In this document: positions 10,769 through 57,300 of the stretch, piece by piece | Layout: each line of letters starts with the position of its first letter | Numbering within the stretch: the stretch's first letter is position 1 | Assembly (NCBI GenBank): GCA_010405405.1 | Contig: MU004234.1 | Coordinates: 1,763,275-1,827,274 of the forward strand | From: Microthyrium microscopicum | Lineage: Eukaryota | DNA length: 64,000 nucleotides | Direction: 5' to 3' | Notes under the pieces: model-generated | What the model was told of the DNA's origin: nothing | Database searches by the model: none | Seen by the model: only the letters and a program-made list of their open reading frames with translations | Program-made: the position numbers and the translations under genes

Positions 10769-11525
10769 ACTGCTCAAGAAAGCAAAGAGCTTTGTAACTT
10801 CTAGGTCGAATAGATCTGATAATTTGAAATGATAGCAAGCTGTCTCTTGACCTTTTGACTGCTGAATCATAAGCGCGTTTTCGTGATGATGAGGATTGAG
10901 GAGGAGCCGAGAAGCGTCATTGGACCTAGAAAGCCAATGGGTATCAAGCTTCAGTAACCCTCGAATCCAACTCAAGACCATCCGAGTGCTGGCTCGTTCA
11001 ATTTTCTTGCCGTGGATCGCGTTAAAATATTTAAACAGAGAAGCATTTCTGAATACTGGGCCAGAGGAGGTATGGATGACTAAGCTTGGATTGCTCGAGG
11101 TTGGACCTGCTACTTTGAGGTAGCTAAAACCTCACGTGCCCTGTTAGTTTGTAGAAACCTGCAACAACATTTATCCGCTCTCTGCTCTACATCGCGGAGC
11201 AAGATAATCCATTCCGATCCTGCACGTTCCCGGCAAGGCTGTCCATAAGGCTGAGGGCCTTTGCCTGCGAAGCCTCTGAAGTTTGAATTCTGAGTAGGTC
11301 AACTAACACCGATGGTTTTGATGAATTTCAAAGGGTGAACTGTCATGGCTAACTTTTCCAATCAGCATCTACGCGGTGTTGTCACTCATTACAGCATCCA
11401 GATTCCATCTATATTGCGTCGGTTTCACGATTCAACCGACTGTGCAATAGAAATCGTCCACCTGACCACTTAATTCAGCCTTTGGATTTGCAAGCGGGGT
11501 GAACAGCTCTGGAGCTCTTCTCATC

Positions 11526-13838
11526 ATGGCCGAACATCAATCCTATCCGTCACCTGGTGAGGGAGTATCTCGTCCTGAGCCTGGTCCTTTCTACGGGTCT
11601 GCCTCTGGACCAGCCGATACCTCTCAGGATGTGCCACAACTAGAACTCACCGATGCGGACAAGAACCAACACCAAGAACTTTTGGCGGGGTTAGAAGACC
11701 ACATCAATCCCAATCTCCACCATAGCGGCGTTCAAGAAGGCAACCTTCTTGTCCAACACCATCCAGCTCAACACATTGCGCGCGAAGTGATGAACCTGGA
11801 CCATAACGAACATGTGGCTCAGTATGCTACTATGAGTATGGACCATGCATCTGAATCCGATGGCCCAATGGGAATGGCAAAGCCACGGTCGAAGGTCTCG
11901 CGTGCTTGCGATGAATGTCGGCGGAAAAAGGTAAATTCGATCTATACTCTAATGTTTGTACAAGCTAATCCTGGTTTATAGATAAGATGCGATGCCACTG
12001 CTGACAACGACGCAGCGGCATGTACTGCATGTAAAAAAGCCAGTATGATTTGCCAGTTTTCTCGGACGCCTCAGAAGCGCGGTCCGTCAAAAGGGTTCGT
12101 ACACGGCGTTTGATAGTCACGACCTTTCTAATTTTGTTATAGGTATATCAAAGAGCTTGCTGATCGTGTATCATCGCTTGAAGGTGCCCTTAAATATGGT
12201 GGCACCGACTCCTTGTCGGGAACCCAAGAAGACAGCACATTCATCATTGAAAATGCTTTCAGTGCCATCAACGCCACAAACAAGCGAACACATAGCATGT
12301 CGGAAGGCGTCAGCGATCACTATTCAGCTTCGGGACGGACTGGATTCCAACCCTTGGAAAATCCTAACCTCCACTTGGATGAGGGTCTCGCCAGTCTCTA
12401 CTATCAGTCTATCCACCCATATCTTCCTTTCCTCCCACCAACAGTCCAATCTTTGCGCGATTTAGTCAACAGCGTCCAACAATCTTCTCGGAATGCTCTT
12501 GTTGCGGCCATGGAAGCTACCCTGCGCTCCGTTCAGTATAATGGCATCGTCGATAATTCTGGACCTACGCCAGCCAAGGCTGATGAGTTGTTGCGGCTGT
12601 CAATCTACAATGATCAAATTGGCCTTGCCCACTTGCAAGCACTGTTGTTCCTCGCTGTGGATGCTTCCAATCGTGGTGGTCAAATCTTAGAAGGTGGTCA
12701 TGGACCTCGACCTCGGAACTTTCTAGCTCAGGCGTTTGAGGAAGCTCGAACTCTTGATTTATTCAATAACGTTGTCATTCAGCGCACGGACGAAGGGTCT
12801 TTGGCCCTTCCTCGATCCATCGCAGTCTGTATTAGCGTGCTTGATGCTTTCACATACGTTGCCAATCGAAAACCTGGTGCTAAGCCCACACTTGGAGTAC
12901 CGCCTACAACGCTGCCTGGCGATAAAGGACGAATCGAAAACAGATTGTATTGGCTTGGCCGTTAGTACTTCGAGCTCCATTTGCTTGACTTACCCCTTGA
13001 CTAACATATCATAGGTCTTGCTGCTCGACTTTCCGACCTTCTTGCCATAGAAATCGGTGATCGGGTTATTGGCTCCACAGAAGATAGTCGATTTCTCAAT
13101 TCGAGAGTTTCGGCGGATTCGGATAATCACAAAAATCTGATGGTGATGAAACATGGCTTCATTCTACTCCTGGAAGAGTTCAAAGAGGTTTCTGGGATGG
13201 ACAAAGATGCATTTCTGAGCATGGCATTTTGGTATGTCTGGGGTCATGTCGAACTCCACTTCTGGCCAGTGATGGAAGCCAAAAACCTTTTCTACCCTCT
13301 GCGTCGGATAATCGATCTCCTTAGCTCCCAGCAACAATCTGTAGTGACGCCATTCACTCACCATTTCACCGGCTTCACCGCTCATGTACTCACCCAACTC
13401 TGCGACTTTTCCGATACTCGAGACACCGCGTCCAATCTTCTCGACTCCCTAGAGAGTACTCTGTCTCAACTGATCCCCCAGTCAGATACAATATCCTACG
13501 ATGCTGTCATTCGCGACGCCGTCTCCCGGAAGCGAGCTTCTTTACCCACCAACTCTAACACGGCCGCCAGCCCGATTTTGGGTCTGGAACACCTCGCAAA
13601 CGCTGCTGTGAATAGCACCTCTAGTGCAACTTCTGGTGCACAAGCCGAGACGAATGGCACTACAGAGTCCAAGGAGCCCGCTCGTCCCACGCCTCCCATC
13701 AATGATAGTGGCATTGCTGCGGCAGCAGAGGCAGCGGCAAAGGCAGCTCAATTACATATGGGCAGCGCAAATAAGCTCAAGCCATTTGACCCAGAGCAGA
13801 TCAGTCAAGAAGGATATCTCTGGGCATTGCTGGGCTAG
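11526..13838 (+). CDS. Zn(II)2Cys6 (GAL4-type) transcription factor, Rgt1-like family, 4 exons
   Basis: SRACDECRRKK|IRCDA...CTACKKASMICQFSRTPQKRGPSKG|YIKELADRV across introns at about 11931-11981 and 12095-12142. Middle region YYQSIHPYLPFLP. Third intron at about 12961-13014. TAG at 13836-13838. Confidence 0.9.
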
Positions 13839-14761
13839 AAGTCTAGCTTGTTCACTGGTTATCCTAGTCCTGCTCCTACTCCAGCAATCCACGAACCTCT
13901 GATCACCGATTTTTCTGCCCGCAATTCACAAACTGGTCCCAAAGCTCATCGTGTGTTATACGATCAGAGCGACATTAGCGTGACTAGCTATGTTGACGCG
14001 CTGAAAAGTGCCGCCAGCATGACGCCTCCCAATGCCTCTGGTCGACTCAGCAATTCTGCCACTGCTCATGCGCTGGCTAATCATCTAGACATTGGCCATC
14101 GAGACTCTTTGCAAGAAATCATTCCCCAAACCAACATGAACTATCATCTCAGTCCCCCCACCCACCCATCCTCCCATCCTTCCCCCAATACATCCTATCC
14201 CCAAACCCCCGAGATCATCGTCACAAACGATTCGAACAAACACTTGGAGTCTTCTAGCAATCACAATATGGAGCAACCAATTGGCGAACACACGTCCTGG
14301 GATCCACATAACATTGATCCCAACTTGCTCGTTCCCGACGGATTTCTATCCACTGAAAATCAGGATCGGATGGTGGAGGATTACTTCAAGTAGAGTTAAT
14401 CTGGAGGTATACATTGGCGGTGGGGATGGTGCGGTACACTTGTTTGAGTATTGCGTTGGTTGAGCCTACATACTTGTATAATAGAGCATTCAAAGTTGAG
14501 TACAGGCGTCGATACCCATGAATTTACAATAGTTTCAGAGTGATTGTCACATTGATATTGGTGAGATGGCATTTTTGTCACGAGCTGTGATCTTGGTACA
14601 TTCTTTTGATTGCAGTACTAGAGTAGATTTCCCGTGCCGTAGACCTCTTTCGTGGTGAATCTTGAGGAGTCCCTCTTGCCACAGGTGAAGTAGAACGCCA
14701 TTATTATTATATGATGCTGCATATTAACATTAAAGTGAGATATGATAGCCGACAGATAAAA

Positions 14762-28210: not shown

Positions 28211-29929
28211 CTTTGCCAGTGGAAGGAGATACTTTTTTCGAGTCTCTTACAGGAACTAGTTTTGATGAGATCTTGAGAATTCGTGCTACTGAGAATGGCG
28301 TGTAGGTCATATATGCATGAGAACAACTCGTTCCTCTTAAAAGTTATGATGTTAGAAAGCTCCACTGAGAAAAGCTCTCTTGATTGGTAAGGCAAGCTTC
28401 TCTCGGAAGACCTGCAGTCCGTTCCGAGTTGGGATTAAATCGACAGCTCGTAAGCAACAGTGAAGACGGAGTTTAATAATTCAACCTAATCATTTCGAAC
28501 TTGATATCACGGGAACTAACTTCGTAAAAGCTGTTTATGAGTCTTTATCCTGCAATATAGCAGTAGATTTCGCCTATAATCAAATATACAGAGAGCTAGT
28601 GGTTGCAGCAAGCAGTCAAAAATGGGTCCAATCAAAGAGAACCAGAGAAAGCCTGCTATATATTTGTTGCTGGTAGAGAATTCAATCTTTTTGGTGTGCC
28701 ATCATATTCTAAGGCTATTTGCTTTCAGATAATAATAATGAAAATTAACCTCACTCTTTTAAAGCTGCCTACCCTATCGTCCTCCAATTTGACCCTTTGG
28801 AATAGGTCGAATCCACGCCACAGAAAGGTTCATCACAATAGCAATGACTCCCAAAATCCAGATAGATTTTCCATAGTTCGTTACATTATAGCGAAAAATG
28901 ATAGCTCCAATGACACCACCAAACTATATCGCATGTCAGTCCACCAACTCCGATAACTCTTTTGAGGGGCTTTAAAAACTTACGTTGCCTACTGCGCCGA
29001 CAAAACCGGACACAATACCATTGGCCTGTGGATGGACGTGAGGAACCAGCGCAAAGTTGGCGCCGTTGCTAGCGTCCATGAAGAATGCGAGGCCAGCGAC
29101 AAGACCAATCATGGTGTGTTGGTTATGTGAATTGGCGAGGCCGATGGCAAGCATAAAGACACCCATGGTGACACCGAGGAAGTGGATCCATATTTTCTTG
29201 GCCCAGAGGTTGCCTTTGGTATATTTGTAGATGATGTCGCTGATAATTCCACCTGTTTGTTGTTAGCAAGTTTATAGATCAAGAAGGGCGAGTGGTTAGA
29301 ACGTACCAAGAGGACGACCATAGACATTCAGAAGACCGAACATAGCGGCCCATCGGCCTGATGAGGTTTGGCCTAGTTTGGGGAAGTTCTTGAGGTAATA
29401 AGCTCCGAGAACGGAATTAATGGCAAGCTCAGATCCAAAGGAGTTGAAGTAGCATGCCATAAGCGCGACTGTTTGAGGAGAGATGAAGACTTTGAAGATT
29501 TCCTTTGCACTTGGTTTCTCGATGACTTCGTGGGCATACTCGGCATCGATCTCGGTGACTTCACCTTTTCCAAACTCTACGTCCTTGGTGATAGCTAGCT
29601 TGTCAACCTTCTCCGTCGAATCCGCTGGTGATGCGCCAGTGCTCTCGCCGTAGACAACGCTACTTTGGGGAACATGCCGGCCTTGCTCATGGATGACTCT
29701 CAAGTTGGCTTCAACAGCCTCATGTCGCTCCGACCACTTGCCAACAGGTGTGTCCGGGCATAAAACGACCATCAAAATAGCTGTGCCCACGATAATAGCA
29801 AACGGTACGAAAAAGGCTCGTCGCCAAGCATCGTGAGGTGAAAGCTTGTAGTGTCCAACAAAGTGGTCGAATATAGCAGGCATGATAAAGTAAGTAATAC
29901 CTCCGCCAGAGTTCCCAAAACCACCCGTC

Positions 29930-30143
29930 TATGACGCGTAATAGCGGCTAACCTATTCATATTAAAGAATACCAAAACCAAATCCTACAACCCCTAAATC
30001 TTAACCATAATTCTAATTTAGCAACGTATTTCTCTATTTATAATAATTTTAAGACCTATTCTAAACTCCCCTTAATAAGGGCTATCTTTAAAAGATATTT
30101 TTAAGAAGATTTATTTTTAGTTACGTAGTACTATAAAATATCT
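29930..30143 (+). repeat. Left terminal inverted repeat (214 bp)
   Basis: tatgacgcgtaatagcggctaacctattcatattaaagaataccaaaaccaaatcctacaacccctaaatc...tagtactataaaatatct matches the reverse complement of 40940-41153, differing mainly by transitions. Confidence 0.95.
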
Positions 30144-33100
30144 TTAAAAGCAAAAAGGTTACTAATTATTAGTAAGATAGTATCCTTATATAATACTATA
30201 GCTTACATAGAAGGATATAATAAGCTATATATAGATTTTAGTATAGTTATAAGAATATATTATAAGTAAAGATATTAGTTCGTAAAGAAGCTTACTAAAT
30301 TTAGTAAAGGAATATTCTTTAAAAGGACTATACTTACAATATCTTTCCTAAAATAGCTTTAATAAATAAAATAACTCTATATAAGGGTTTTAATTAGAGT
30401 AAATACTATAGAGCTCCTTCCTTAAAAGGATAAAAGCAAGATTATAAATTTATAACTATAGTAAAGTTTAATAAAGCTTAATAATAGTAGTTCCTTACTA
30501 AATTAGCTTATAAGTAAGCCTTAGCTATAATATCCCTTTTATAGTATTATTCCTTTTATAGATTCTTAGGTTATTCCTTTATATATTATCTCTTTAGATT
30601 AAGTATTAAGTCTTAGTAGTAAGGAAAATATAATTCTTTACTAAATAATATTATTCTAGTATGTTATCTTTTTTACTTATAACTACTTTACTAACTTTTA
30701 GTAAATCTAAGTTGCTAAAAACTTCTATCTCTTTAGCTATAATGTCTTCTAATGCTTTTCTACTACTAATTTATATTCTTAAAAGTAATTTCTAGCTTTT
30801 AATATAATTATATAAGCTTTAAGACATTAACTTAAAGTATTTTAGACTTTTCTATTTATATTATATAAAGTAAAGTTACGTTCTAGTAAGCCTATATCCC
30901 TTAGCTTATATACTAAATTATTATATATACTATTTAGCTTACTAATTAGTAGAACTATTAATACTAAAAGTATAAGTATTCTTTATAAATACTAATTATC
31001 TTATAAAATGTATCTATACTTAAATATTTAAGGAGCTAGCTTACTATTATAGAATACTATACTTATAAAAATATAAAAAAAGTAAGAAAATAGTATAAAA
31101 TTAGCGCTAAGATAGTTAGTACTACTATATAATAATCTTATAGAGCTAAATTATATATAAGTTTATCTTTTCTTATTAAATTAAGTATAACTAATATAAT
31201 TAAGTAATAAAATTATAGTAAAGAAGGTTTAGTAAAGTAAGATTTTTTAGTATTAAGTAAAAGAGAGACTATAACTCTAATTTAGCTATTATATCTAAGT
31301 AACGCTAAGCTAGTTTATATAGTAAGTAGTATATATACCTAAGTCTTATTAAGTTTCTTTATAGCTATATTAAGAACTAAGTAAATAAAGGAATAATATT
31401 TTTTTAGCTATTTTATAAAAGAAGAAAAAAAAATATTATTTATAATTATCTAAAAAATTTTATATAATTTAAAATTATATAGAATTTATAGTAATTATTT
31501 AAGCTTATACTATATAGTAGTTTTATACCTACGTAGTCTTATTATAATAATTTAGTAGTAAATATTACTTTAGGAATAACATTCTACTACTATAAAGTAA
31601 ACCTTCTTAGCTAAAAAGCTTTCTTTATTCTTAATTCTATACTTTCTAGTATAGTATACTTCTATATATATAAAATTAATTATAAAGCCTATTATACTAT
31701 TCCTTTCTAAAGACTACTTAAGAGAATACGTATAGTAAAATACTTTATAATAAAATACTTAGTATTTTACTTATAACGCATACTCTATAGATAACCTATT
31801 AAAATATATTAAGGTATTTATCCTTTATAAAAAGATACCTTATATAAAGAATTAAGATATTATTTTACTTATTATATAAGGAATTAAGATATTATTTTAC
31901 TTATTATATATATTTATTTTAGTAAAATAAAAAAAATAACTTATAGTTACTTTTTAAAGTACTATTTAATAATTACTTAGCTTTAAAGTAGCTAAAATTA
32001 GTAAAGATTACTAGTCTAACCTATCTCTATAACCTAGTCTAGTTTTCTAAATATATAAATATTAATTAGCTAGAATAGCTATAAAGCTTTTCTATTACTA
32101 AGTAGTATTATTTAATACTATATATTACTTAGGTAAGTAGAGCTTTCTATAATAAAGCTTATTAAGTAGTATATTTATACTAATACTTAGTAAAATTACT
32201 ATAAAGGTATCTTAATAAATCTTAATTAATATTAAGACCCTTTTAAGGTAATAATATTATAATAATCTTTATAACTATTTATACTTTAGTATTTATTATT
32301 AAAGATATCTTATTATACTTTATTAGTTACTCTTCTTTAATACGCTTTCTAAAGAAGATTAAAATAGTAAAGTATTTTTTATATTAATTTTTTTCTTTTA
32401 AAAAAAAGTCTTAATATCTTTAATATTAATACGTTCTATATTAATATATTATATTACGCTAAGTTAATCTATAATAATATAAGTAATTTTTAACTATTAA
32501 TTAATTAATATTTTAGTTATACTAAATACTATAACTACTTACTACCTAGAGATACTATATATAAAATATAAATAATATTACTACCCTTTATTAGTTATAG
32601 CCTACTATAGACTATTATCTATAATAGGCTTATTAATAATAACTAATTACCTCCTTATTTAAAATTTTTATCTTATAGATAGGCTTACTAGTTATAATAA
32701 AGTAATTCTAGTATACCTTTTAAGTCTAATCTTGTTTTTCCTTTACCTATTTTACTAATAATACTTTCCTAAGGCTATAATTCTATATAACCTATTATAC
32801 TTATATAGTAGTTATACTCTAGTCTAAAGTATAGTAATTAGGTTATTCTATATATTAAAGGAGCTTACATTTTATAATATAAAGGAAAGTTAGTTAAAAA
32901 CTAGCATATTATTTAAATACTATTTAAACTAAATACTAGTAAATTAGTAATTAGAAAGAAGATTACCTAAAAACTAAAGCTAACTACTATAATTTTCTAC
33001 TATAATTTTTATTTAAACTAGGCTTTCTAAAGACTTTCTAATATTATTATAGCCTTATTATTATTATATATAGAGATAATTCTATATACTACCCTATATC

Positions 33101-34899
33101 CTTAAGAAGTATAAGTACTATATTAAGAATAATATAAATAGTATAAGTAGGTTATAAGATTATTAACCTATATAAACTATAAGCTCTTAATTTTACTAAG
33201 AGTATTCCTATTTATAAAAAGTAATCCTACCTTAATCTAGTATTAATAAGTATATTTAATACGTTAGCCCTAATATATAATAGAGATTATACTTTTTACT
33301 TTAGTATAAAGTATATATCTTTTCTAAGAAGGTTAAGTTTATTAGGTAAGGACTCTAAGTAGCCTTATTAAAGTAATTTAACTATATTATTTATTAGCTA
33401 GTAGTTATACTTTAGATATACTTAATTTTTCTTTAAATAAAAATCTTAATATATATTATTAATCTAAAGTAGTAAATATTATTATTAAAAGAATATAGAT
33501 ACAAAAGCCTTTAAAAAAATAGAGAAACTTTATTACTTAATATATAATTAGTAGTATATTATAAGAAAAGTAAGAATATACTTTCTATTAATATATACTA
33601 AATAATATAAATAGATATTAATAAATATTATTATTAATTTATTAATATATAAAGGCAAGCTAGTTAACTACTTCTAAATATCTTTATTTAAGTAGCGTTC
33701 TTCTTAAGTTAAAAAGTATTAGTCTCTAGTAGATAGAAGTAGTAACTATAACATATATCTAAATACTAAATAATTAAGTAGTAAAAAAGTAGCTTAGAGT
33801 TAGCTAGTATTTAAAAATATATTACTAGCTATAGTAGTTACTAACTAGTTATTATACTTATTTATAAAGGAATATTATAAAATCTAAGTAGTTAAACTTT
33901 TAACTTATAAGGCTTATATATCTATCTACCTTATTACCTAGTAATAATTAACAACTTTAAGAATAAATTAAAGGTTTATTTAAGATATCTAGAAGTATAG
34001 AATAATAGGCTTATATTTTATATATTATAATTAATAAAAATAAAAATATAAAAAGTATATTATAAGCTATCCTTTGCTAAATTTAAGCCTATAATATATA
34101 CTTTAGATAAGTCCTAAATTTACTCTATTATTTACTAATTTACTTTAAGATAGTAAAGATTACTTTTAGTATTTCTATTTATTTTAGTAGTTATTTTTTA
34201 ATATATTTACTTTTATTATTATTACTACGCTTAGGATAATAAAGTAAGTATACTACTTTATTTACTCTAAGTACTTATTATATATTTAGTTTTTTTATCT
34301 TTTTAAAAAGTCTTCTATCTATAAGAATAGTATTATATTAATAAGTTAAAGCTAATTATAAACTTAGGTATATATTATAAGTATTAATTAAAGTATAGCT
34401 AGTAGTACTTCTTTTTAAAAAGATAGTTATATCTAATATAATAGTATATCTTTATAAAGAACTTTATTATATATATATTAATAAAGTACTAAATCCCTAC
34501 CTACTATATTATTAATTAAGGTAATACTTTATATAGAAAAAATATATATTAGTAATAAAATAACTAATAAGTAAGAATTTATTTACTTCCTCCTACTATT
34601 AAAAAGAATACTAACTTAATATTAGACTAATAAAAATCCTAATTTAGGTAAATATTAGCTCCTCTAGAGCTATATTAGACTCTAATTATTTTCTTAGTTT
34701 ACCTAAGAAATAGTTAAAGTCTAATATTAAAAGATAAAGACTTAAAAATACTAAGAGCAGTATATATAAGTTAAATTTAACTCTCTTTTAGTATAGTATA
34801 CCTTTTAGTAGTATATTATCTAAAATAAAAAATAGATTAAAATTATAAGTTAATATAGGTATAACTTTCTCTAAATCTTACTCTATAGTTAAAGTTACT

Positions 34900-35775
34900 A
34901 CTTTATAAGATATTCTAATATAGAAATATTTAGCTAAAAAGTCCTTAAAATAAATAAAGCTTATATATTCTTAGCTACTCTTTTAGTTTACTAAGAGGTA
35001 GCTAAAGATTTATAAGCTTTATTTTACCCTATATATTATCTTAATAATATTTACTTTAAGAGTTATAGATTTAATTAAGTCCTTAATACTAATAACTAAA
35101 TATAAATTAATATAATATAATATTAAATTAAAGAATCTTACTTAGCGCTCTTTTATAAGGACCTTTAGCGCTATATAGATAGTAAAAAGAAGTTAAATAT
35201 TTTTAAGGTACGTTTAAAAATAGAGAAGATAAAGATATATATAGATCATAATAGTAATATAATAGGCTTATTAGTTAAGTTTAGCAACTTAAATCTTCTA
35301 AAAAGTAAGGATATATTAATATTATTAATATGCTTTTAAGGTAGACTATAGAGATTATATAAGTAAGTAAGAAGAATTCTTAAAAACATAAATAAGGCTA
35401 AGGTAAGCTTTATTTAGATAAATAGTACTAAATAGAGAAAATATTACTAGCCTATTTATATTTTAAATAATACTAAAAAAATTAATATATCTTTAAAAGC
35501 TTTAAAAGAGATAAATAAAGTAAAGATTAAAAAAGAATAAGAAAAGAATAAGTAATTAGTTTAAGAGGTTAACTTTAATAAAGGCTACTCTCTTTATAAA
35601 TATAATAGTAAGAGGTTATTAAAGCGCTATTATAAATTTAATAATAAGGATATAGATAACTATATTATATATAAAGAAAAAAATAAAGTTACTCCTAATT
35701 AAAAAGTCTTAGAAGAATATAGTCTAAATATTAAAGAGCCTACTACCTTTACTCTTAAATATCTAGTAGCCTAAT
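34900..35775 (+). pseudogene. RIP-degraded internal ORF of the TIR element, unknown product (boundaries approximate)
   Basis: One frame reads protein-like for about 200 codons (..KVRLKIEKIKIYIDHNSNIIGLLVKFSNL..CF*GRL*RLYK..EVNFNKGYSLYKYNSKRLLKRYY..) with only TAA/TAG stops. No family recognised. Confidence 0.35.
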
Positions 35776-37149
35776 AATTAACTTTATTAATCCTCCTTAA
35801 GTTATTTCCTACGAACTAATATTATATCTATCTTAAACAAGACTATAACTCCTCTATAAACTAGTAGCCTAAGAAAGTCTATTAAAATTAGAGTTAAAGC
35901 TTAATAACTATTATTATATATCCTAATAAGTAGCTAATAATATTAAATAGAAATATAACTAATCTTTTATAAGAATATATTAATACTTAACTAATAACTT
36001 CTTTAGCCTCTAAATTTATAATTTAGTACTACTTTTAATTAATTTAATTTTTAGTTAGTAGTTCTAGTTCTAGTAATATTTATAATAATATTATATAAAT
36101 TCCTTAAGCTTATTTTTTAACTATTTTATCTTTATATAGTAGTTTTCTATACTATATTTTATAACTTCTACTTAATAAATTATATTAATTATTATATTTA
36201 CTAACGTTTATTTAGGTTTAACCTATAAGTTAATAAACTACTTAAGAATTCTAAGAGCATTAGTTTAGTAGAATAAAGAAGGAGCATAATAAGTTAATAA
36301 GCTAGTTACTTATTATTTTATAGCATACACGTAGTCTTATATAAGGATATATTATTAGATTAGTTAGCCCTATTTTAGTAAAGGCTAACGCCCTTACTAA
36401 GATTTAGTCTTATTTAAGTTTAAGGTTTATATATAAATATATACTAGTAATTAAGGCTTAAAGTATAAAGTTAATATTTTATAGCTAAAATTTAAGAAAC
36501 TAAAATTCTTTATTATAATTTATTTATAAAGAGTAGCGTATAAGTTAGTAAATAAAGATATAAATAGAGTATAGTATAAACTAGCTAAATAGACGATTAT
36601 ATAATAAATACTTTAATATAACGTTACTACTAGTAAGGTACTAAGGTACTCTAAGTAAGCTAAGATATCTACTATCTACTTTCTTACTTAAGCCTCTAAG
36701 CCTATTACTATATAGATCTATACTCTTAATATACTACTTAAAAGGCTTAATAACTATTTAGAATAAATTAATAAGAAAGTAAGAGCTTTATTACTTATTA
36801 AGAGTCTTAGTTATTAATAGGAATACTTACTATAGATGCTTATAGTCTTTCTTATTAAATAATAGTTCTTATATTAGTATTACCTATTACGCTAATAAGA
36901 TATAACTACCTATTATAGATAGCTTAAGCAAGTAATTAGTTATTTATAGAGATATCTAAAGCTTAATAGTAGGTATTAAACTAATAAATATAGAAGAATT
37001 ATCTATTAAAAAGTAAAACTAGCTAATATAAAACCTTTAAAGAGAAACTAAGTAGTTTAAGCCTACCTTCTAGCCTAATTATAGATAAACGTACTAATAA
37101 AATATATTAATTTACTAAGTACTAAGGCTTAGTCTAACTACTACTATAA

Positions 37150-38528
37150 GTAACTACTATATAAATTTATAAGCCTTTACTTAGGTCTAGCTATAATAAA
37201 GTTATATACTTATATAGTAGTTTTAGTAGCTTTTTTCTAGCTTTAGAAGCAATATTAGTATTAAACTACTCTTTACTAGCTTTAGAAGTAATACTAGTAT
37301 TATCTTTATTACCTTTATTATTATCCTTATCCTCTTTATTAGGCTTATAATCTAAGCCTTTATTATCTTTTATAACTAAGGTTATAAGTTTAGATAGAGG
37401 CTCCTCTTTATTATTATTTAAAAAGGGTAATTTCTATAGCTAGAGGTTCTTAAATTTAGAAGTATTAATTATAAGAAGCTTTAGATCCTCTATTTTAATA
37501 AACGAATCTTTCTTAATAACCTTTTTTATACTAGGTATTAGTATTAATTAACTTCTTAATATTAATAATATAGACTTAAGCTTAAGGGTTATAAATTATC
37601 TTTTTTTAAGAATAATATACTATTAATATATTTTATTCTTACTTATCTTCTTTAACTTTATTATAAAATATTCTATAAAGTTATTAGTAAATATTAACCT
37701 ATTAGTATTAAGGTTATTTAAGATAATTTAGAAGACTTAAGGCTATTTAGATATAGTAATATAAGAAGCTAGAATAAGCTTTTTTCTTAGCTTATAATAC
37801 TTTTCTAGTATAGCTTAAGAAAAGTATCTTACGACTTATTTTTTAACTAGGTTAGTAAAGTTCTAGATTAGTTAATAGGTAATAAATCTATAAGTTATCT
37901 TAAATACTAGTAGATAGTTAGTATATATTATTAGCAAAATATCCTACTTATAAAACTTTTATACCTTCTTTTTTAAAGACTTATCCCTATCTTTATTAAT
38001 TACCTAATCTATAATATATACCAAAATCTAAATATACTATTTAATATTTAATTAAGCTAGTTTTAGCTTATTAGTTAGATCTTTCTTAATACTTTTTATA
38101 TAGTAATATTATATACCTTTCTTTAGTTAGTCCTTTAAACTTAACGTAGCTACTTAATTAGCCTTTACTTAAGTTAATTCTTTACTTATTCTAGTATTAT
38201 ATCTTACCTAATTAGTATAAGCTTTAAAAGCCCTTACTAGAGAAGGTTAATAGCTATTTACTCTTATATTTCCTTCTATTTTAACTAAAGATTAATATAC
38301 TAGAGAATTATTAATCTTAATAATATTCTAAGGATTTATAATAATATAAGGCTTTAGTAATAGCTCTTTATACTATCTTAGATTAGCGTTAGAGTAGTAA
38401 AGCGTAGTAGATAGCTTATTACTTCTTATAAGTATTATTATATTAGAAGGTATATTTATTAGTTTTAAGTAAGTATAGTAGCATAGCTTAGTTTTCTATT
38501 TATAATTAATTATTATACCTAGAGGCAT
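37150..38528 (-). pseudogene. RIP-degraded second ORF of the IS3EU-like element (3' end approximate)
   Basis: ATG at 38528-38526 begins a long frame in tandem with the transposase, with a possible Cys cluster near the N-terminus, a charged middle and an acidic tail with a 42-bp internal repeat (about 37238-37300). Confidence 0.5.
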
Positions 38529-38884
38529 TTTTTTATAATAGCTAGTTAAAATTAAGCTTAGTTTATAAGTAAAGCTATGCTATTAACTATTAGGATCCTA
38601 TTTAATAATAGTAGCTATTAAATAAACGTATAAAGTTATTTTATTAAAATAGAATAATATTTATTAAGGTAGATAATAATAGTAAAGTAAAATAATAAAT
38701 ATTTCCTAAGTAGCAGGATTTATTATTAGAAATATTAATTATACTTTACCTTATAAAGTATTCTTAAAGAAGTAATTAAAGTATATTATATTAAAAATTT
38801 ATAGTTAAAGTATATTATATTAAAAATTTATATATCTTTACTAGTACTAATATAAGATTAAGGTATTCTTATTAAATTAGAACC

Positions 38885-40574
38885 TTAAAATTCTCCTAAT
38901 ATATTTAAATTATATTCTAGTTTAAAGGCTAGACTAGCTTCTCTACTTTCCTTAGCTAATAAGTATTTAGTACTAATCTTATTATATAATATCCTTATAG
39001 TTACTATAACTATAAAATAGTTTAGGTAATCTATAATAAACTACTTACTACTAATTAGAGTAGAGAATAAATTTAAGCGTAGCTTTACCTCTAACTCCTT
39101 ATATACCTCTAAGAATTATTATAGCTAGAGATAAATACGAATAAATAGCTTACTTAGTCTACCTTATTCTCTACTAAGAGGTTTATTAAGATTAAAATTA
39201 ATAAAAGTAAAGAAACTATTATATAGCTTATATATATTTACTAGTAAATAGGTATCTTTATTCTATCTACTTACTACTTACTTTCTTTTCTTTATTAGCT
39301 TTCTAATAATTAGTAACCCTTAATATTTAGTATTAGGAGCTATTATATAAAGGAAGTATAGTTTTCTATTTATAGCGTAAGGCTTTTTCTTTTTATTATT
39401 TATAATCTTATAAGAATTCTAGTTATTAATATATTTCTATATAACTATTTATAAGTATAGTATAAAGATTACTAGTATAGCTATATAGTCTAGATATTTA
39501 TCCTTTATATAGGCTTTCTAATCTTCTAGGGATTTAAAAAATAACTAAAGAATATAATATTAGTTATAAAGAGGCATAAAGGTAAGTACTATTTTCTTAT
39601 ACTTTCTACTTTATAAGCGCTCTACTACTTAGTTCCCTCTACTAACGTTTAATCTACTAGTTCTATATACTAGTTCTATAAAAATAATAATCTTTAAAAA
39701 GGATTACTTACTACTAATTCTCTATTATAAGCTTATAATACGCGTCTACTATTATAACTATTTTATTTCTATAATCTAACTAGATAAATTAAGGCTAAAT
39801 AAGGTTTAGCGTATTAAGTAAATTATTTAAATATTAGTAAAAAGTACTAATGCTTATAGTATTTAAGATACTAACATAATACTAAATAATATATTAAGAG
39901 AATATATTAATATACGTATATATTTTAATTTTAAAATTCTTAAGCTTATTATACTTATTAACTAACTAGACCTAGTTAAGCTCTTTAATAATATAGTCGC
40001 CTTATACTTAATAAGATTACTTCTAACGAGCTTATATTACTTTAAGATCTACTTCCTTCTAAATCTACTATAGAATTTATTATAAAACCTTATATCCTTA
40101 TTTACGTAGCCTATTAACTATTAAGTAGTATCTATAATTCTTAATACTAATATATAATCTATTAAGTTTAGCTTAAAATACTACTAAATCTTTAATATAT
40201 GCTACTTCTCTTTCTTCTTAGAATATATAAAGGTTTTACTATTTAAGTCTTAGTTTCTTATATAGTTACTAAAGTATCTATAGTTTTATATTATAGCTAT
40301 AGACCTAGAGAAGAATATAAAGCTCTTTTTTATTATAGTTCTAGAAATAGAATAGCTATTTAGTAAGTTTCTTAAGTTTTTTTATAATTTTAAGTAGTTT
40401 CTACATAATAATTTTCTATTCTTTAATCTTATAGTATAAGATTAAAAGAAATACTTTAGTATTATAATATTTTTTTAACTACTTAAGTAAATCTTAGTAT
40501 ATATACTCCTTATTATTAATAAGATATTTAATATTAAGGCAATACTCCTCTAAATTAATATAATAAGTAAGTAT
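38885..40574 (-). pseudogene. RIP-inactivated DDE transposase: N-terminal Clr5-like HTH plus IS3/integrase-like core, one intron (39602-39545)
   Basis: Raw translation GDYIIKELN*V*LVNKYNKLKNFKIKIYTYINIFS*YII*YYVSILN...FI*LDYRNKIVII...YRTSI*N**IKR**REL. Reversing RIP transitions gives approximately GDY.V.GPN.VWS.DGHDKL..FGIEIYA.ID.FSR.I.WC.VG.SN...IRSD.G.E...YGTS..NQRIERWW, followed by WNSHKI and GKPYFLY. Confidence 0.85.
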
Positions 40575-40939
40575 CCTAAAAGAATTATTAGTAAATAAAG
40601 TAGAAAGAAAAGAAAAGAAAGATAGAAAAAAGAAAATAGGTAGAAGTTAGAAAAGAAAAAGAACTTATAAATTATCTATAGATAAAAGAATTTCCTATAG
40701 ATAACTTATTAAAGAATATATAATATTACTACGTAGCGTCTTCTAATTTATTATTATATTAAAACTAATATTATATAGTATATACTTTACTAACTATATC
40801 TATATATAGTATTTACTTTTTCTAAGCTTAGAAACTTAATATATTCTTTATTACTCTCTACTATATACTAAGTCTACTCTTATTTATATAAAGATAGTAG
40901 TTACTTACTAAGAATATTATAATAGAGTATTAAGGTTTT

Positions 40940-41153
40940 AGATATTTTATAGTACTATATAACTAAAAATAAATCTTTTTAAAAATACTTTTTAAAGATA
41001 GCTCTTATTAAGGGAAGTCTAGAATAAGTCTTAAAATTATTATAAATAGGGGAATACATTGCTAAATTAGAATTATAATTAAGATTTAGGGGTTGTAGGA
41101 TTTGGTTTTAGTATTCTCTAATATGAATAGGTTGGCCGCTATTATGCGTTATA
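40940..41153 (-). repeat. Right terminal inverted repeat (214 bp)
   Basis: agatattttatagtacta...gatttaggggttgtaggatttggttttagtattctctaatatgaataggttggccgctattatgcgttata is the reverse complement of the left TIR. Confidence 0.95.
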
Positions 41154-41630
41154 CCCGTTAAGGCATTGGCGGTGCCTACGATGTTCTTGTCGAAGAATCC
41201 TGTGCTCCAGACCTGGCATGGGACGAAAGAACCGCCTAGAATACCTACGAAAAATCGAAGGATAATCAGCCCTTTGGCATCTTTGAGAGCGATCGCACAA
41301 GCAGTTGGAATGGCGCCCAAGACGAGCGTGCCGGCGAAGACATATCGTGGGCCGAATCTATCGCATAAAGGGCCACTAATGGCGCGGACGATAAGTGTTG
41401 CTGTGAGGGCGAGGATGTTGGAATTTGCGATTTCGTTCTGGCTGAGATGAAGATCCTTTTTGATCGTTTTGGTGATGAGAGGCGACCAAGCGTACCTGAT
41501 GATGGATTAGGGACTAGATAATTCAATATGTAGAGCTTTGAAGGCATACCACGACATGAAAGCTACCATAAAACCCCACCAGGAGAAGAAGAACACTCGT
41601 CCATAGACATTGAATGGATTTGATACTGGT

Positions 41631-41652
41631 ATCGATCTGGCATCGATCTGGC
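41631..41652 (-). repeat. Perfect 11-bp tandem duplication (ATCGATCTGGC x2) frameshifting exon 1 of the nitrate transporter
   Basis: Removing one copy converts [12 protein letters not shown]...LW* to [32 protein letters not shown]. Confidence 0.9.
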
Positions 41653-42094
41653 TTTCTTATTGACAGGATTCACTTCTGGAGCCTTGAAGAGAACGGTAGG
41701 ATCGAAGGGTAAGAAACCCATGGTTGAATTACTACTTTCGCAGCGTGTAGTCCGACGGATTGTAAGAAAGAGAAAAGACCAAAGTATGCAGCGTCTCAAA
41801 AGTTTGCCATATCAAAAGTACCTGGGGTTCCTTGTTGTAGTAGTCTTGTAGATCAATCAAGTGCAGTGACACTATATATATAGATCTCTAGTAAATTCCA
41901 TCCGGCCACACGCTACGTCTCCATATCTTGCCAGTCGATGAGATCGAATAATCATTGCTTCGAATCATTGAGGTGAATCTCCGGGAGAAGCACACATCTA
42001 GCCAAGTCTTCTCCGATAACATCAATGATCAGCTCAAGAAACATCCATATATCGAGGTTTTGGTGGGAGTTGGAATGTAGTTAGGAAAGAGATT

Positions 42095-42102
42095 CTCCGC
42101 GG
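42095..42102. promoter_or_regulatory. NirA/Nit4 nitrate-induction site CTCCGCGG with nearby GATA (AreA/Nit2) cores
   Basis: Exact match to the CTCCGHGG consensus about 375 bp upstream of the nitrate transporter ATG. GATA/TATC cores at about 41924, 42015, 42236 and 42303. Confidence 0.6.
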
Positions 42103-42704
42103 CAACGATTGCGGATTTCCATAGCCAATGTAAAACCAGCTTTTCATTCGACGTAATGCAGCCAAGGGAATGGTGGTGAAATCCAAGAGAAGTCAAGAAA
42201 GCCAAGGGGAAAAGATTGCGAGGCCAGGCCTTAAATATCAACTTCTCCCCACACGACCCCCACATTGCAGCTCCAAGAGCTAAGATTGAATTGTGTATCC
42301 CTTATCATTTTCTAAGATCGGAGAAAGGAAACAAAATATTGAGAATCTGAATTCAGCTCCTCTAACGTTGATTCTAACTTGGCAATCTTGTGCGTGAACC
42401 TTGTTGGTCTTCATCACCTGCGAATTACCAAGAGACCAACAATGACACTGGAAGAGAACGACTTCTTTGGTACAATTTGTGTGCGAAACAAAATAGACAG
42501 GGCTTACCCCCTAGTCAAGCAACCACAAATCAACAAGCATACCGCACATCATGGCAACACCTTGCGCACATCTAATTGTGTATGAACAAAGTCATTTTCA
42601 TTATGTGTTGCCAACATATACAGTCAGTCAACATTAGAATTACAATAAACATTTTTCTGTCCGCCCATTACAGGCACAGCATCATCTCATCATTCAGCAG
42701 TCCT

Positions 42705-47385: not shown

Positions 47386-49063
47386 CATTTGCTATATGCA
47401 GAATTATTTTCGGAGGGCGCTTGGGCCTCGAATTCTCGCGCAGCACCCTTCACATCTTTAATATTTAATAAATAACTAAATACTATAATTTCTTACTAAC
47501 TATGTATCTATTTATTCTCTACTATAGATAGTCTTATTAAGCATCTTATTCTATATTATTTAATATATGCAAAATATTATCCTATACTAAAACTAAGTTA
47601 CTAAAACAAGACTTATTAGAATTACTAGATCTATAGCCTAATTAGCTCAACTAGAGTGTTTTCCTCCTAAAATTATAACTACTAAGTATAGCTTCTTATA
47701 AATCTATTACTTATTATATAGACCCTTATATCTAGGCTATAAGACAAACTTAGACTTAGGTATATTAGCCTAGTAGAAACCCTATTAGCCTAATTAAGTA
47801 TATACGCGCTAAAGCGTATCTTAAATATAGATAAACTATTTTATAGGTTACTAAATAAATTTACTATAGTCTAAAAACTATTAAGTACTAGAAATATAAT
47901 CTAGATATATATAGATTAATATAAAAGCTATAAGATAAGTTATATAGAGTACTACCTTAACTAACTATTAAAAATAAAGACGCTATATTATAATATTTAC
48001 TCTTATTTAATTAGCTCTTATAGAACAAAATAGTTTACTAGTTAGAAAAAGAGCGTAGAATTAATATAAATTAAAGTATAATATCTTATTTGCTAAAGAA
48101 AAGAGCTTAGAATAAGAAAGCCCTTATAAGAGTTTTAAATATATATAGTAAAGAACTATAAGTATTATATCTTTAAGATATAGTATAGTTTAATAATAAA
48201 GATTTAGTCTTCCTTAATAAGTTTATCTTTAAAGAATAAATAGGCTAAAAATATAGTACTTATATTCTAATTAGATTACCTTCTTGTTAAACTTAGAGTC
48301 TTAGATATAGAAAGACATAGGCTATTCTTATAACTATTACGCTATAGGGTTATCTTCCTTATACTAGTATATAAGAGAGTTATTATAAAGTAAAGAACTT
48401 CTACGATTAGATTAAAAACTAGCTTATTCTAGTACTATATAATTACTTTAAAACTTAAATACTAGTAGTAATCCTTAATAACGTATCTATCTATATAGAT
48501 TCTAATATTAAGTAATTATTAAAAGTAGCAAATTACGTAGTTTAATATCTATTACTATATTCTCTAAATTTTAATCCTATAGAACTAACGTTTAGTATCT
48601 TAAAGGCTTAGATTTAACGATATTAAATTACAAAGTAGCGAAGTGCTACATCTTTTAAGGACTTCTTAGAGCATGCTTTAGCTTATAGTAAATGTAATTG
48701 TTTTGTAATAGCTTAGTTTAGACATACTACAAATAGTATATATTATAAAAAAACTAATATATATACGTTCTTTACCTTTCTTATAGAGTATAAGCGATTA
48801 GCTGCTATAGAACTTTATTAGTAAAGTAAATAGCTATTATAGTATTAGACTAAAGTATCTTAAGCGTCTTAATTATTTATATATATATTATATATCTATA
48901 AGATCTAAATACTAAATTAAGTTATTATAGATTAAATTTTAGGTATATATAGAAACTAATAATAAGACTACTATTTACTAAATAGTATCCCTCTATCCTC
49001 CTATCCTTACTAACTATTCTATACTAGCTAGTAGTCCTTATCTATATATGCATATAGCAAATA
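47386..49063 (+). mobile_element. Tc1/IS630-like DNA transposon (about 1.7 kb), RIPed, with a DD34E transposase remnant at 47688-about 48820
   Basis: Reversing RIP gives LVFLDES...GYLPCTG...VVILDNASIH-(34 aa D to E)-YLPPYSPDFNPIELTFGILKAWI. Short inverted repeat ATTTGCTATATGCA (47387-47400) / TGCATATAGCAAAT (49049-49062). The TA TSD is clear only on the right. Confidence 0.8.
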
Positions 49064-50355: not shown

Positions 50356-50365
50356 NNNNNNNNNN
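50356..50365. other. Assembly gap (10 N)
   Basis: Run of 10 N, with a 312-bp near-duplicate on either side (50044-50355 vs 50459-50770). Confidence 0.99.
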
Positions 50366-54307: not shown

Positions 54308-57300
54308 TAATTTAAGTACTTCTATATTAAATTTTACGCTTTACGCATATTTTGCGTATTATTAATAAATACGTAGAGGCGTTTAATAATTCTTATTAGA
54401 TTACTATAGTTATACTATAGATTTAACTAATTAGCATTTAGCAACACTATCCTTAATTAGGATTAGCGTTACTAAAGGTACTAGCAAATTTATAAATACT
54501 AACTAGAGCAATATAAATTTAGCATTATTTATTAGAATAAAGACTACTTAGAGGCCTAAGCTTTGCTCTATAATATTCTTCTTAAATCTATAGAAGCATT
54601 TATATTATTTCCTCTCTACTAACTATAAAATATATTTACCTTGTTCCTTATTAATTTATATTTATTAAATCTATTAAATTAGTTCTAATTTATTAAGAAA
54701 TACTATATTATTTAGTTACGTATTACTATAAGTAAGGTACTACTTATTCCTAATCTTAAACTAGTATTAAGTAACTCTTATATTGCCTATAAGCGTAATA
54801 GCGTTAATATTTAAAGCTATTTAGTTTTACCCTACCGTAGCAAAGATAGCTACTTTGCTAAGAAGCTAGTCGTTCTAAATATAGGAACTAATTAATAGTC
54901 TACTATTACATTAACGCTATAGTAAGAAAGTATCTTAATAATTAAATCTATTAAAAAGTTACCTCTATTACCTAAAGTAGCTTTAGATAATAAAGATAAA
55001 GAATTCCTTTATTAAAATACTTAAGTTAATATTAACATTTAATAACCTTATAAAATCATTACTAGACTATTAACTATAGTACTTATTACACTAGTAAGCA
55101 TAATAAAAGAGCTAAGATTAAAAGGTAAAGAAGTATTAACCTCTAGTACCATTATTAGTAATTTATTAGACAAAGATATATTAAAAGTAAGATTACCTAT
55201 TAATATTTACTATTAATTAGAATTACTAGTACGCAAAAAAGAACCTTATAACGTTCTTATATTATTTTTACCCTATCTACTCCTAGAACTAGTAGACCTT
55301 AATAGTAAAGTTATATTACTCACTAGTATAAAGCCTTTATTTATATAAGCCTTATATAGAGTTAGACTAGAGGTAAAAAAATAGATATTAATAGTTCTTT
55401 AGAATAATCCTAATAATTCTACTACTCTTTAGAAATATTATATATTAATATCTAATAGTAAGTATCTAAACTAATATATTAAGTTTATAGAAAAAGATTA
55501 ATTCTTTAAATAACTATATACTACGTTAATAATTAATTAAACTATAGTATTATATTACTAGTCTACTTAAAAACTTTAAAATTAGCTAGTAGAAGAACTT
55601 ATAGACGCTAATATAAAAGTAGGTTAACTAAGTAAATTAGTAAAAGTACTACAAAAAGAAGTAGCTACCTATTAGTAAATAATAATAGATCTTAAAGCAC
55701 TTACTAGCTAAATTTATTATAACTATAAGTTAGTACTAACTACTACTTATTTAAATAAATAAGTAGCTTTTACTAAATTAGTAAAGAAGCGCAATACTAA
55801 TCTACAATATTATAAGCTAGTTATTAACCTTTACTATTAGGTCTAAGAACTTAAGGATAGACTTTAAATAAATTTAAACTAAGCTTATATTAACCTAGAT
55901 AATTTAGAAAATAATATCTTCTTAGATTATTCTATACTATAAGTAACATATCTAGTAGTTTTATACTTATAGCTTTAAGCCTAAGGAATACACTATATCT
56001 TATTATTATTAGTAGCTAATAATACCTCTTTAGTAATACTTACAAAGTTTAAAGAACCTAGTAATTTTAAAAGTAAACCTACATACTATAAATAATAGAA
56101 GGAAAAAATATTAGATATACTTCTTAATAAGAATATATATTTATACGTCTCTACTAAAAAGAAAAAGATTAAGTTTATCTATATTTATTATATTAGCCCT
56201 ACTTATAGTATTATAGTTATATAGAAAAGTTATAAGTTAAAAGACCTTTATAGTACTATAAAAGAAATATAGATAGATCTAGATAGTTATTACTACTCTA
56301 AGAACGCTTTTAAAGATACTAAGGCATAGTTAAAGTTCTTAGATACTAAGATAAAAGATATAAAAGGTCTTTAAGCCTTTATTAACTACTTCTTAATAAA
56401 TTTAATAGATATAAAACTATCTAAGTATAAGAAGATTATTAAATTACAAAATCTTATTAACTATAAGTTTACAAATCTACTAGTAAGCTAATATTTTAGT
56501 AGTTTTATTATATTTTACGCTTAACTTTACCTAATTACATACTAAATTAATTATAAGCCTACTACTATAAATAATACCTCTTATAGCTATAATAATAATT
56601 AGTCTACTAATAAAGAAGCCTAAAATAATAAAACTAGTAACGTTAACTATCCTATAAACGTCTTTAATGCTTTAAAAATAGATAAACGTTATATCTATTA
56701 TAAGTAAAAGAGTTACTACTACTTTAATAAGACTACGCTATATAAAGATTAGGAACCCTTATTTAATAATAAGATTAAAACCTTAATTATACTTTTAGTA
56801 ATAATATTTATAAAAGTTTAAAAAGAATAGTAACCCTTTATAGAAAATATTACTAAGAATAATAATTATTAGTCTTTAAACTAGATACTTTTTTACTAAG
56901 CTATAAGAAAGAGCTAAATAAGATTAAAATATATAATAAAAGAAAGAAACATACCTTTAATACTAATACTAAGCGTATAAAGAAGATATTTTATTAATAT
57001 AATAAAGAGTAGTACTAAAATACTAAGAAAGCTAAAGAAACATTCTATTAGGCTAAAGAAGACTATAAAAATATTAAAGAGAAAATATAAGAAAAGACTA
57101 AGAAAATACTTAGCTACCTTTACTAGCATATTTAGTACCTTAAGTATAAAAATACTATTTATAAGAGATAAGTTTTACTAGTATACTTATACGCTATCTA
57201 TATTTTACTAGCCTTTATTATACTAATAGTATAGCTTTAAAATATTAAAAAAAAAGATTCTATTATTAGATTATAATAAACTATTATTAACTTAGTATTT

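Follow-up and report, generated by a model that had tools for sequence, protein, structure and literature searches.

A repeat-mutated element with long terminal inverted repeats splits a host reading frame

We analyzed a 64,000-nucleotide stretch of the genome of Microthyrium microscopicum (GenBank assembly GCA_010405405.1, contig MU004234.1, positions 1,763,275 to 1,827,274), hereafter the window, whose coordinates are counted from its first letter. The window is GC-normal DNA (41-53% GC) with three AT-rich blocks, and our subject is the block at about 30-41 kb, an element of 11,224 bp (29930-41153) bounded by terminal inverted repeats (TIRs), whose interior had been set down in an initial annotation as about 7 kb of unexplained, cargo-like sequence. 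GC content across 30-41 kb is 17-22%, compared with 41-53% in the flanks. Dinucleotide ratios diagnostic of repeat-induced point mutation (RIP) follow the same division: (CpA+TpG)/(ApC+GpT) is 0.06 in 30144-37150 and 0.04 in 37151-40939 versus 1.31 and 1.36 in the GC-normal flanks, and TpA/ApT is 1.63-1.64 in the element versus 0.70-0.71 in the flanks. RIP has saturated the whole of 29930-41153, and no part of the element can still be functional.

To this we added Logan contigs from four public runs, placed on 28500-42500 at 80% likeness or more. Runs X1, X3 and X4 come from one sample (organism A), are not independent of one another and are probably the source of the window assembly, while run X5 is from another organism. 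Among the X1 contigs, 1261 of 1335 variable places are transitions.

The features that frame the element are as follows.

29296-29929, minus strand: downstream half of a split host reading frame, from in-silico removal of the element
29924-29929, no strand: putative left copy of the target-site duplication, CCCGTC by direct reading
29930-30143, plus strand: left TIR, 214 nt, pairing with the right arm
40940-41153, minus strand: right TIR, 214 nt, pairing with the left arm
41154-41159, no strand: putative right copy of the target-site duplication, CCCGTT by direct reading
41160-41547, minus strand: upstream half of the split host reading frame, from in-silico removal of the element

This terminal frame is real. 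The two 214-nt arms are 91% complementary and all 19 of their mismatches are transitions; in a purine/pyrimidine (R/Y) alphabet, a transition-blind comparison whose letters RIP cannot change, they are equal at 214 of 214 positions, and the match ends abruptly at the inner ends. The flanking hexamers are equal at five of six positions, with a C/T transition as the sole mismatch, giving 29930-41153 the TIRs and flanking target-site duplication that mark a class II TIR transposon. Two X4 contigs start their alignment exactly at 29930 and are preceded there by unrelated GC-rich DNA, so this terminus is common to other insertion sites. In-silico excision of the element and one duplication copy produced a 326-codon stop-free minus-strand stretch across the junction (115 + 211 codons). 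Both halves of this split host reading frame, which spans at least 326 codons, are still open, and neither gave a Pfam family. One contig at single-copy depth from the source-organism reads joins 29463 to 41165, and the two flanks therefore adjoin in a paralogous locus. The TIRs, the duplication and the restored frame together lead us to treat the 11,224 bp as one insertion, or an insertion with later additions, into a host reading frame. A paralogous contig from the same sample also joins 41257 to 41537.

The interior and the right part of the element differ in abundance

Contig placement divides the sequence between the TIRs into a many-copy block on the left and a low-copy part on the right.

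30144-30220, no strand: 77-nt spacer from the TIR to the many-copy block, with no likeness to the unit that follows
30221-36443, no strand: many-copy repeat block (passenger DNA), 6,223 bp, delimited by contig depth and by loose ends at 30220/30221 and 36443
30221-30351, no strand: unit of about 100-130 nt, tandem in other copies and single here, from backward joints and loose-end consensus
34672-34727, no strand: 56-nt palindrome in the R/Y alphabet, score 44 in the transition-blind scan
36444-40939, minus strand: low-copy part, the sole place where long coding relics (presumably of transposition genes) reach significance, from contig depth and stop-poor score

Flank depth in X1 is 107-124. 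Over the bins of 29901-36438, summed depth reaches 460-2985 in X1, 2966-13898 in X3 and 122-1392 in X4, which is 4-28 times flank depth in X1 and 3-15 times in X3. Over 36439-41108 it is 65-190 in X1 and 474-1092 in X3, or 0.6-1.8 times flank depth in X1. The right subterminal region, 40642-40939, is likewise not many-copy (its bin is at 1.8 times flank depth in X1, 1.2 in X3 and 0.5 in X4). The contigs on the interior are diverse: 1961 of the 2472 placed in X1 are less than 99% like the window, and at 40 listed variable places between 30380 and 35813 the other letter is carried by 3-19 different X1 or X3 contigs, with 4-8 contigs over each interior place in X4. Across 36.5-40.6 kb, by comparison, the listed contigs fall into two versions, one identical to the window and the other 5.6-11% different. 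Depth summed over contigs gives neither a copy number nor a ranking of the parts, AT-rich DNA is unevenly covered across runs, and the runs are probably those from which the window was assembled; we therefore read the contrast only qualitatively: 30.2-36.4 kb has about ten to twenty diverged copies, compared with about two for 36.4-41.1 kb. The TIR looks low-copy. The earlier proposal that the element is or was multicopy agrees with the many diverged source-organism contigs that lie on it. Run X5 supplied short pieces only (138 contigs placed), from which we draw nothing on strain or habitat.

The right boundary of the block is a sharp break at 36439-36443, where contigs of other copies enter unlike sequence after 36443 and one joint starts at 36439. 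This is the natural inner boundary, and it replaces the limit of 37150 drawn in the initial annotation. The sequence that follows 36443 in other copies had no match at the right end of the window element. On the left, 10-14 contigs per run break at 30220/30221, with two shared consensus sequences before the break (5 + 5 contigs in X4); in X4, 10 contigs break there versus 2 that end at the TIR terminus, 29930. Contigs of other copies also contain the backward joints 30351>30232, 30330>30224, 30318>30223 and 30298>30221, which together with the shared loose ends indicate that these copies hold a tandem array of the unit that stands single here. The loose-end consensus strings of other copies do not recur in the element, except for one that reflects a 32-nt tandem repeat at 31.8 kb. 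That repeat (31834-31903) consists of 32-nt units in tandem at 97% identity, and other copies differ around it by indels of 57-135 nt; given such indels, 31.35-31.9 kb is probably non-coding, variable DNA. By eye, the 10-nt word ATTAAGGYTT is repeated at 36450 and 40929; we did not count it, and a similar word lies at 36420.

A transduplicated host-gene fragment lies in the block

Several protein-like frames had been noted by eye in the interior. We scored stop-poor segments (+1 per sense codon, -9 per stop) against 200 dinucleotide-preserving shuffles, taking the best frame of each, and the six frames of 30144-36443 scored 109, 108, 105, 105, 95 and 74, all within the shuffles (mean maximum 98.7, 95th percentile 136). 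Purine 3-periodicity, which is insensitive to RIP, exceeded the 95% null in three places of the element: 34.8-35.9 kb, 37.05-37.7 kb (also above 99%) and 38.2 kb. None was significant in 30.1-34.7 kb, by a test insensitive enough that one real host open reading frame (ORF) and a DDE_3 relic also fell below its threshold. Hence the plus-strand frame proposed at 34.9-35.8 kb is upheld by its periodicity, and those at 30.2-31.0 and 32.5-34.0 kb are at chance level against the shuffles. Purine phase places the coding-like stretch at 35.0-35.9 kb on the plus strand; across the block as a whole no strand is consistently purine-rich.

A full HMMER search with one 300-residue frame from this stretch (35031-35930, plus strand, X at stops) against 1.84 billion proteins returned two proteins at E ≤0.001. 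P0002 (E = 4e-4) is a repetitive 1186-residue protein with a 32-residue match, which we judged spurious. P0001 (E = 1.3e-6) is KAF2675218.1, 'hypothetical protein BT63DRAFT_450204 [Microthyrium microscopicum]', and has no Pfam family at a useful score. We then used a RIP-aware codon score, which asks whether C>T and G>A changes suffice to turn some codon of the aligned residue into the window codon, and two blocks of P0001 were recovered.

35308-35364, plus strand: RIP-mutated copy of P0001 residues 140-158 with a Cys/His motif (GVYRCHRCAFEVDHGECTG), from the RIP-aware score
35577-35741, plus strand: RIP-mutated copy of P0001 residues 169-223, from phmmer and the RIP-aware score

In the longer block, 24 of 55 residues are identical and 26 more are RIP-derivable, for a score of 158 versus 34.0 +/- 2.9 in 20 shuffles; in the shorter, 5 of 19 are identical and 13 RIP-derivable (76 versus 31.5 +/- 2.7 in 15 shuffles). 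The two are collinear, lie in different frames 212 nt apart and together comprise at least 74 codons. P0001 residues 1-139 and 224-339 were not found anywhere in the element, and residues 159-168 were not found beside either block, for which reason we do not claim a simple intron between them.

The Cys/His block is conserved in P0003, a distant homologue (25% identical) from another source, which shows that it is native to the protein family and that transfer ran from the gene to the repeat. Bins over 35038-35971 are at 7-8 times flank depth in X1, and the listed variant rows there rest on 7-18 contigs; the fragment has therefore multiplied together with the repeat and undergone RIP, whereas the named gene, KAF2675218.1, is intact. 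The shared stretch, about 430 bp, may be short enough to have shielded the source gene from RIP. Repeat-borne sequence that is collinear with a cellular gene having homologues elsewhere is what defines transduplication, and it is what we find here; a fragment of a cellular gene, and not the whole gene, has been transduplicated into the block. P0001 and P0003 form a small fungal protein family with an acidic N-terminal part containing STNSWVD, a GVYRCxxC...CxxCG motif and a C-terminal coiled-coil-like region. They were the only two members found among proteins of 186-594 residues, and P0001 residues 160-235 had no match among longer proteins.

Coding relics of the low-copy right part

The right part differs from the block in its coding signal: four frames of 36444-40939 score 186, 173, 168 and 148, versus a 95th percentile of 130 in shuffles.

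37026-38579, minus strand: coding relic of 518 codons with 35 stops, from purine phase, with periodicity 9-11, above the 99% null
38738-40430, minus strand: coding relic; the stop-poor frame runs to 41152 (805 codons, 61 stops) and the coding-like phase to about 40430 (about 560 codons)

These minus-strand relics start about 0.7 kb inside the right TIR, a position where transposition genes would lie, and we regard them as the remains of a putative transposase. A phmmer search of PDB with one whole minus-strand frame and with 37026-38579 gave chance matches only (E ≥0.16), and a word-seeded HMMER search with 37026-38579 (minus strand) found no match among 8000 candidates. The initial annotation had placed a DDE transposase and a second ORF, ORF2, at 37.1-40.6 kb. 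Significant coding relics are indeed present there; no family could be assigned from Pfam, PDB or the word-seeded search, so 'DDE transposase plus ORF2' remains a guess. Near the right TIR, at 40592-40640, lies a purine-rich low-complexity tract (AAAGAAAAG...), in place of which another copy has 31 different G-rich letters.

Searches of the block for known elements

An R/Y scan of the element against itself and against the whole window returned solely the TIRs and the 56-nt palindrome, with no internal long terminal repeat (LTR) or TIR pair, and the transition-blind scan found no direct repeat scoring 40 or more inside the element. Neither 30144-36443 nor 36444-40939 has ends that align above the level of shuffles, whereas the TIRs, as a control, scored 214 versus 25.5 +/- 4.3. 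The TIRs show that repeats survive RIP in the R/Y alphabet, and an intact LTR element or nested TIR element is therefore excluded. An LTR retrotransposon, which we considered as a candidate, was rejected on the same scan for want of a pair of long direct terminal repeats. The window yielded no further copy of the block: with blastn, word size 11 returned nothing, word size 7 gave low-complexity matches of at most 55 bits, and the R/Y scan gave none.

Rfam returned no match to the element at E ≤1, so the block is not a displaced rDNA unit, and Pfam, searched in six frames with X at stops, returned no family at E ≤1. RIP-aware counts of the polB motifs A, B and C were 2, 2 and 0 versus 1.7, 1.4 and 2.2 in 30 shuffles, a comparison of low sensitivity after RIP, and the RIP-aware count of reverse transcriptase (RT) motifs was 6 versus 6.6 in 30 shuffles. 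A composite RT motif scan gave no match, but the same scan also missed the window's own Gypsy-like relic and so carries no information. As a control on sensitivity, the neighboring RIP block yielded DDE_3 at E = 5e-4 and 20.4 bits (curated cut 28.6); that this relic and a Gypsy-type RT relic are readable in neighboring DNA indicates that some relics stay detectable at such levels of RIP, with poor sensitivity. The earlier statement that the interior shows no RT, polB motif or internal LTR/TIR pair is thus confirmed by the Pfam search, the motif counts and the R/Y scan. The proposed likeness to a small Starship or Polinton found no support, as the searches gave no signal of a tyrosine recombinase, polB, an ATPase or a capsid protein.

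Origin of the block

Taken together, most of the 'unexplained 7 kb' is repeat DNA altered by mutation, to which part of a host gene has been added as a copy; it is not a set of readable cargo genes, and the element is of a kind already known. The account that we favor, and to which we give about even weight, is that the interior is passenger DNA: a dispersed repeat containing a transduplicated piece of a host gene, which a low-copy TIR transposon either captured or received as a nested insertion, RIP having inactivated the whole. The 11.2-kb block would then be one dead copy of a class II transposon that entered a host reading frame, presumably by cut-and-paste movement on its 214-nt TIRs, made a 6-bp duplication there and was afterwards destroyed by RIP. 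The TIR element proper would measure about 5 kb, with its own genes represented by the minus-strand relics at 37.0-40.4 kb. The segment 30221-36443 would be a 6.2-kb piece of a dispersed repeat of which the same organism has some ten to twenty further diverged copies; it would hold the two blocks, at least 74 codons in all, from a P0001-family host gene, and would have been inserted into, or captured by, the TIR element; on this account the block is probably foreign to the TIR family. The roughly 10-fold difference in abundance between the interior and the right part argues for riding or nested repeat DNA and not for a coherent cargo module.

Several observations weigh against this account. 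The block could not be classified into known transposable elements (TEs), and it lacks a flanking duplication of its own, no common word of at least 8 nt being found except TATATATA and TTTAAGAA. The split host frame is open and the TIRs contain no transversion, which suggests that there was little time for a second insertion. AT-rich DNA is under-covered in some runs, the right part reaching only 0.2-0.3 times flank depth in X4. Depth at 30215, to the left of the break, is still about 9 times flank depth in X1, so some block copies extend leftward toward the TIR, and the joints 30928>39320 and 36439>38302 (one contig each, with a shorter side of 23-24 nt, often false) would mean that block and right part are connected in other copies. 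These last observations would fit an interior intrinsic to the family, the copy in the window being a rare full-length (autonomous) member and the many further copies of 30.2-36.4 kb non-autonomous derivatives that lack the transposase side, a possibility that we take seriously but think doubtful. The two joints would then be deletion derivatives with both parts, and in X1 and X4 the depth of 29.9-31.3 kb is about double that of 31.3-35.0 kb, as would follow if other copies had that end twice or as short derivatives. The open halves of the host frame and the transversion-free TIRs would favor a single insertion event, and truncated copies have a precedent in the available part of a report on hAT-H3 elements, of which 39% of 471 are truncated (PMC6710886). 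However, deletion derivatives normally retain both ends, whereas the right subterminal region is not many-copy here; the X4 contigs break far more often at 30220/30221 than at the TIR terminus; both linking joints have sides shorter than 30 nt; and the sequence after 36443 in other copies is unlike the right end of the element. That the whole 11.2 kb moved as one piece, as a passenger-carrying TIR transposon of unassigned superfamily, with the 214-nt TIRs and 6-bp duplication otherwise typical of Polinton-type elements, that brought more than 6 kb of passenger including the host-gene fragment into a Dothideomycete gene, we consider unlikely; if true, it would be a new passenger-carrying class II lineage in fungi or a Polinton-derived relic.

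Two readings assign the block to a definite kind of element. It might be a single classifiable nested element that lacks terminal repeats, as the block does, either a 5'-truncated minus-strand long interspersed nuclear element (LINE) or a Helitron with a captured gene fragment. Depth in X1 drops from left to right, from 28 to 4 times flank depth, as it would with 5' truncation of a minus-strand LINE, yet the number of stacked contigs does not drop with it, 15-18 still being present at 35813. Helitrons capture gene fragments at the DNA level, and at 36444-36448 the letters CTAG, followed by T, come behind a (TA)-rich palindrome and so resemble a Helitron 3' end, though motif and palindrome are low-complexity sequence in RIP DNA. 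Given RT motif counts at chance, no Pfam result, no consistently purine-rich strand, a sole coding-like stretch on the plus strand, and other copies that continue left past 30221 with common sequence, we think either identity decidedly improbable. A real multi-gene cargo element, be it like a Starship, like a Polinton or some other giant transposon, with genes that RIP has made unreadable, appears very unlikely. Its case draws on the 6-bp duplication and TIRs of hundreds of nucleotides, the Polinton/Maverick combination, on hints in the purine phase that either strand has short coding stretches (30.2-30.8, 31.0-31.5 and 32.3-32.9 kb), and on the fact that RIP at 19% GC would hide most homology, the neighboring RIP block having given one weak Pfam match. 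It must be set against the absence of Pfam families in six frames, polB and RT motif counts at chance, block frames within shuffles and 30.1-34.7 kb without significant 3-periodicity; the HMMER search with one 300-residue frame gave a host-gene fragment and no mobile-element protein, 11.2 kb is below the sizes of Starships and most Polintons, and the many-copy and TIR-linked parts are unequal in abundance.

The initial annotation had favored a multi-gene, cargo-carrying DDE transposon. What survives of it is a unit far larger than its coding part, containing DNA dispensable for transposition that includes a piece of a host gene; the multi-gene component fails, as there is one coding-like stretch and it is a gene fragment, not a gene. 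The contrary outcome that it had named, an interior resolving into nested known TEs with most family members being short transposase-plus-ORF2 elements, is not what we see in those terms: the interior did not resolve into known TEs, and the transposase-side part is rare rather than common. Finally, the interior or the 36443 junction could be an assembly artefact of a repeat-rich region, given that no listed contig spans the full stretch and that Logan contigs break inside both TIRs. Short-read contigs are expected to break in repeats, however, the ends are coherent (TIRs, duplication, restored host frame), and each side is covered by contigs identical to the window (36540-36979 and 37108-37881), so that we attach hardly any credence to an artefact.

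Comparison with known systems

By analogy of working and not of family, the closest precedent is the hAT-H3 element of Pseudocercospora fijiensis and related Dothideomycetes, which, in the available part of its description, is 9.5-9.9 kb long with 20-bp TIRs, an 8-bp duplication and a captured histone H3, and is present in hundreds of RIP-inactivated copies (PMC6710886). As far as that account goes, both are large TIR-bounded class II elements in AT-rich blocks with host-derived coding sequence that was amplified and RIP-inactivated while the original gene stayed intact, and both families contain many truncated copies. They differ in that hAT-H3 has 20-bp TIRs, an 8-bp duplication and a recognizable hAT domain, compared with 214 nt, 6 bp and no detected transposase family here, and in that hAT-H3 carries a whole H3-like coding sequence in hundreds of copies, whereas here a fragment of an uncharacterized gene is carried and the TIR-linked part appears to occur only about twice. 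As a class assignment hAT was rejected, since the flanks share 6 bp and not 8 and the TIRs are long.

Starships, in the available part of one report, have at one end, as their first gene, that of a 'Captain' tyrosine recombinase with DUF3435, and their accessory genes are intact; the flanking repeats of the Hephaestus Starship are not true target duplications, and it prefers TTAC sites (PMC10104507). Set beside this partial account, the present element is similarly fungal (Pezizomycotina), with TIRs and flanking direct repeats, DNA beyond the mobilization genes and vulnerability to RIP; it differs in having no detected DUF3435 recombinase, no intact genes and a length of 11 kb. A test for a Captain gave no Pfam match in any frame, and a long minus-strand relic starts within about 0.7 kb of the right end.

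The long TIRs are also those of a Mutator-like element (MULE); we rejected that assignment because the 9 bases on either side are unmatched and Pfam found no MULE domain. MULEs make duplications of 9-11 bp. Pack-MULEs and other transduplicating TIR elements, such as Turmoil-1 of C. elegans, take gene fragments at the DNA level between long TIRs as non-functional passengers, as would be the case here, but the element has a 6-bp duplication and no MULE domain, and its passenger is mostly repeat and not genic DNA. Polintons/Mavericks have a 6-bp duplication, TIRs of hundreds of nucleotides, a protein-primed polB, a retroviral-type integrase and termini AG...CT, and are usually 15-20 kb. The element shares their 6-bp duplication and TIRs of hundreds of nucleotides and differs in its smaller size, in termini that are not AG...CT and in showing no polB, integrase, ATPase or capsid signal; we rejected the assignment on the absence of Pfam families and on the polB motifs (C 0 versus 2.2, A and B at chance, with low sensitivity after RIP). 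The nested, RIP-degraded TE mosaics of Dothideomycete AT-rich blocks resemble the element in saturating RIP, unclassifiable relics and adjacent repeat families, whereas here the mosaic sits inside one clean frame of TIRs and duplication in a gene-dense, GC-normal region. If its TIR superfamily were assigned, the combination of long TIRs with a 6-bp duplication might prove unusual for Ascomycota.

Implications and neighboring sequence

The element illustrates that after saturating RIP (19% GC) 'protein-like frames' seen by eye are mostly a product of base composition. Transition-blind comparison, with the R/Y alphabet and C>T/G>A codon scoring, still recovers history: it revealed perfect TIRs, showed that no terminal repeats lie inside them and brought out a piece of a host gene that is nearly missed by ordinary searches. 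The fragment adds one more case of host coding sequence amplified in repeats and then RIP-mutated while the source gene survives, as described, in the available part of the report, for histone H3 and DNA methyltransferase gene sequence in Dothideomycetes (PMC6710886). A literature search for Microthyrium microscopicum returned no account of its repeats.

Elsewhere in the window, eight ORFs were looked up by exact sequence, and one of them is present in the public collection. Positions 1-1000 are a further RIP-type AT-rich block (23% GC, index 0.17) cut by the window edge. The third AT-rich block contains 10 N at 50356-50365, which may be masking or an assembly gap. The DDE_3 relic of the next RIP block (PF13358, Tc1/mariner-type) is a weak match at 48309-48620 on the plus strand, and a Gypsy-type RT relic is visible by eye at about 57000-60500 on the same strand, with YLDNILVFS at 58540 (Y-x-D-D, D>N by RIP) and a purine periodicity of 6-12.

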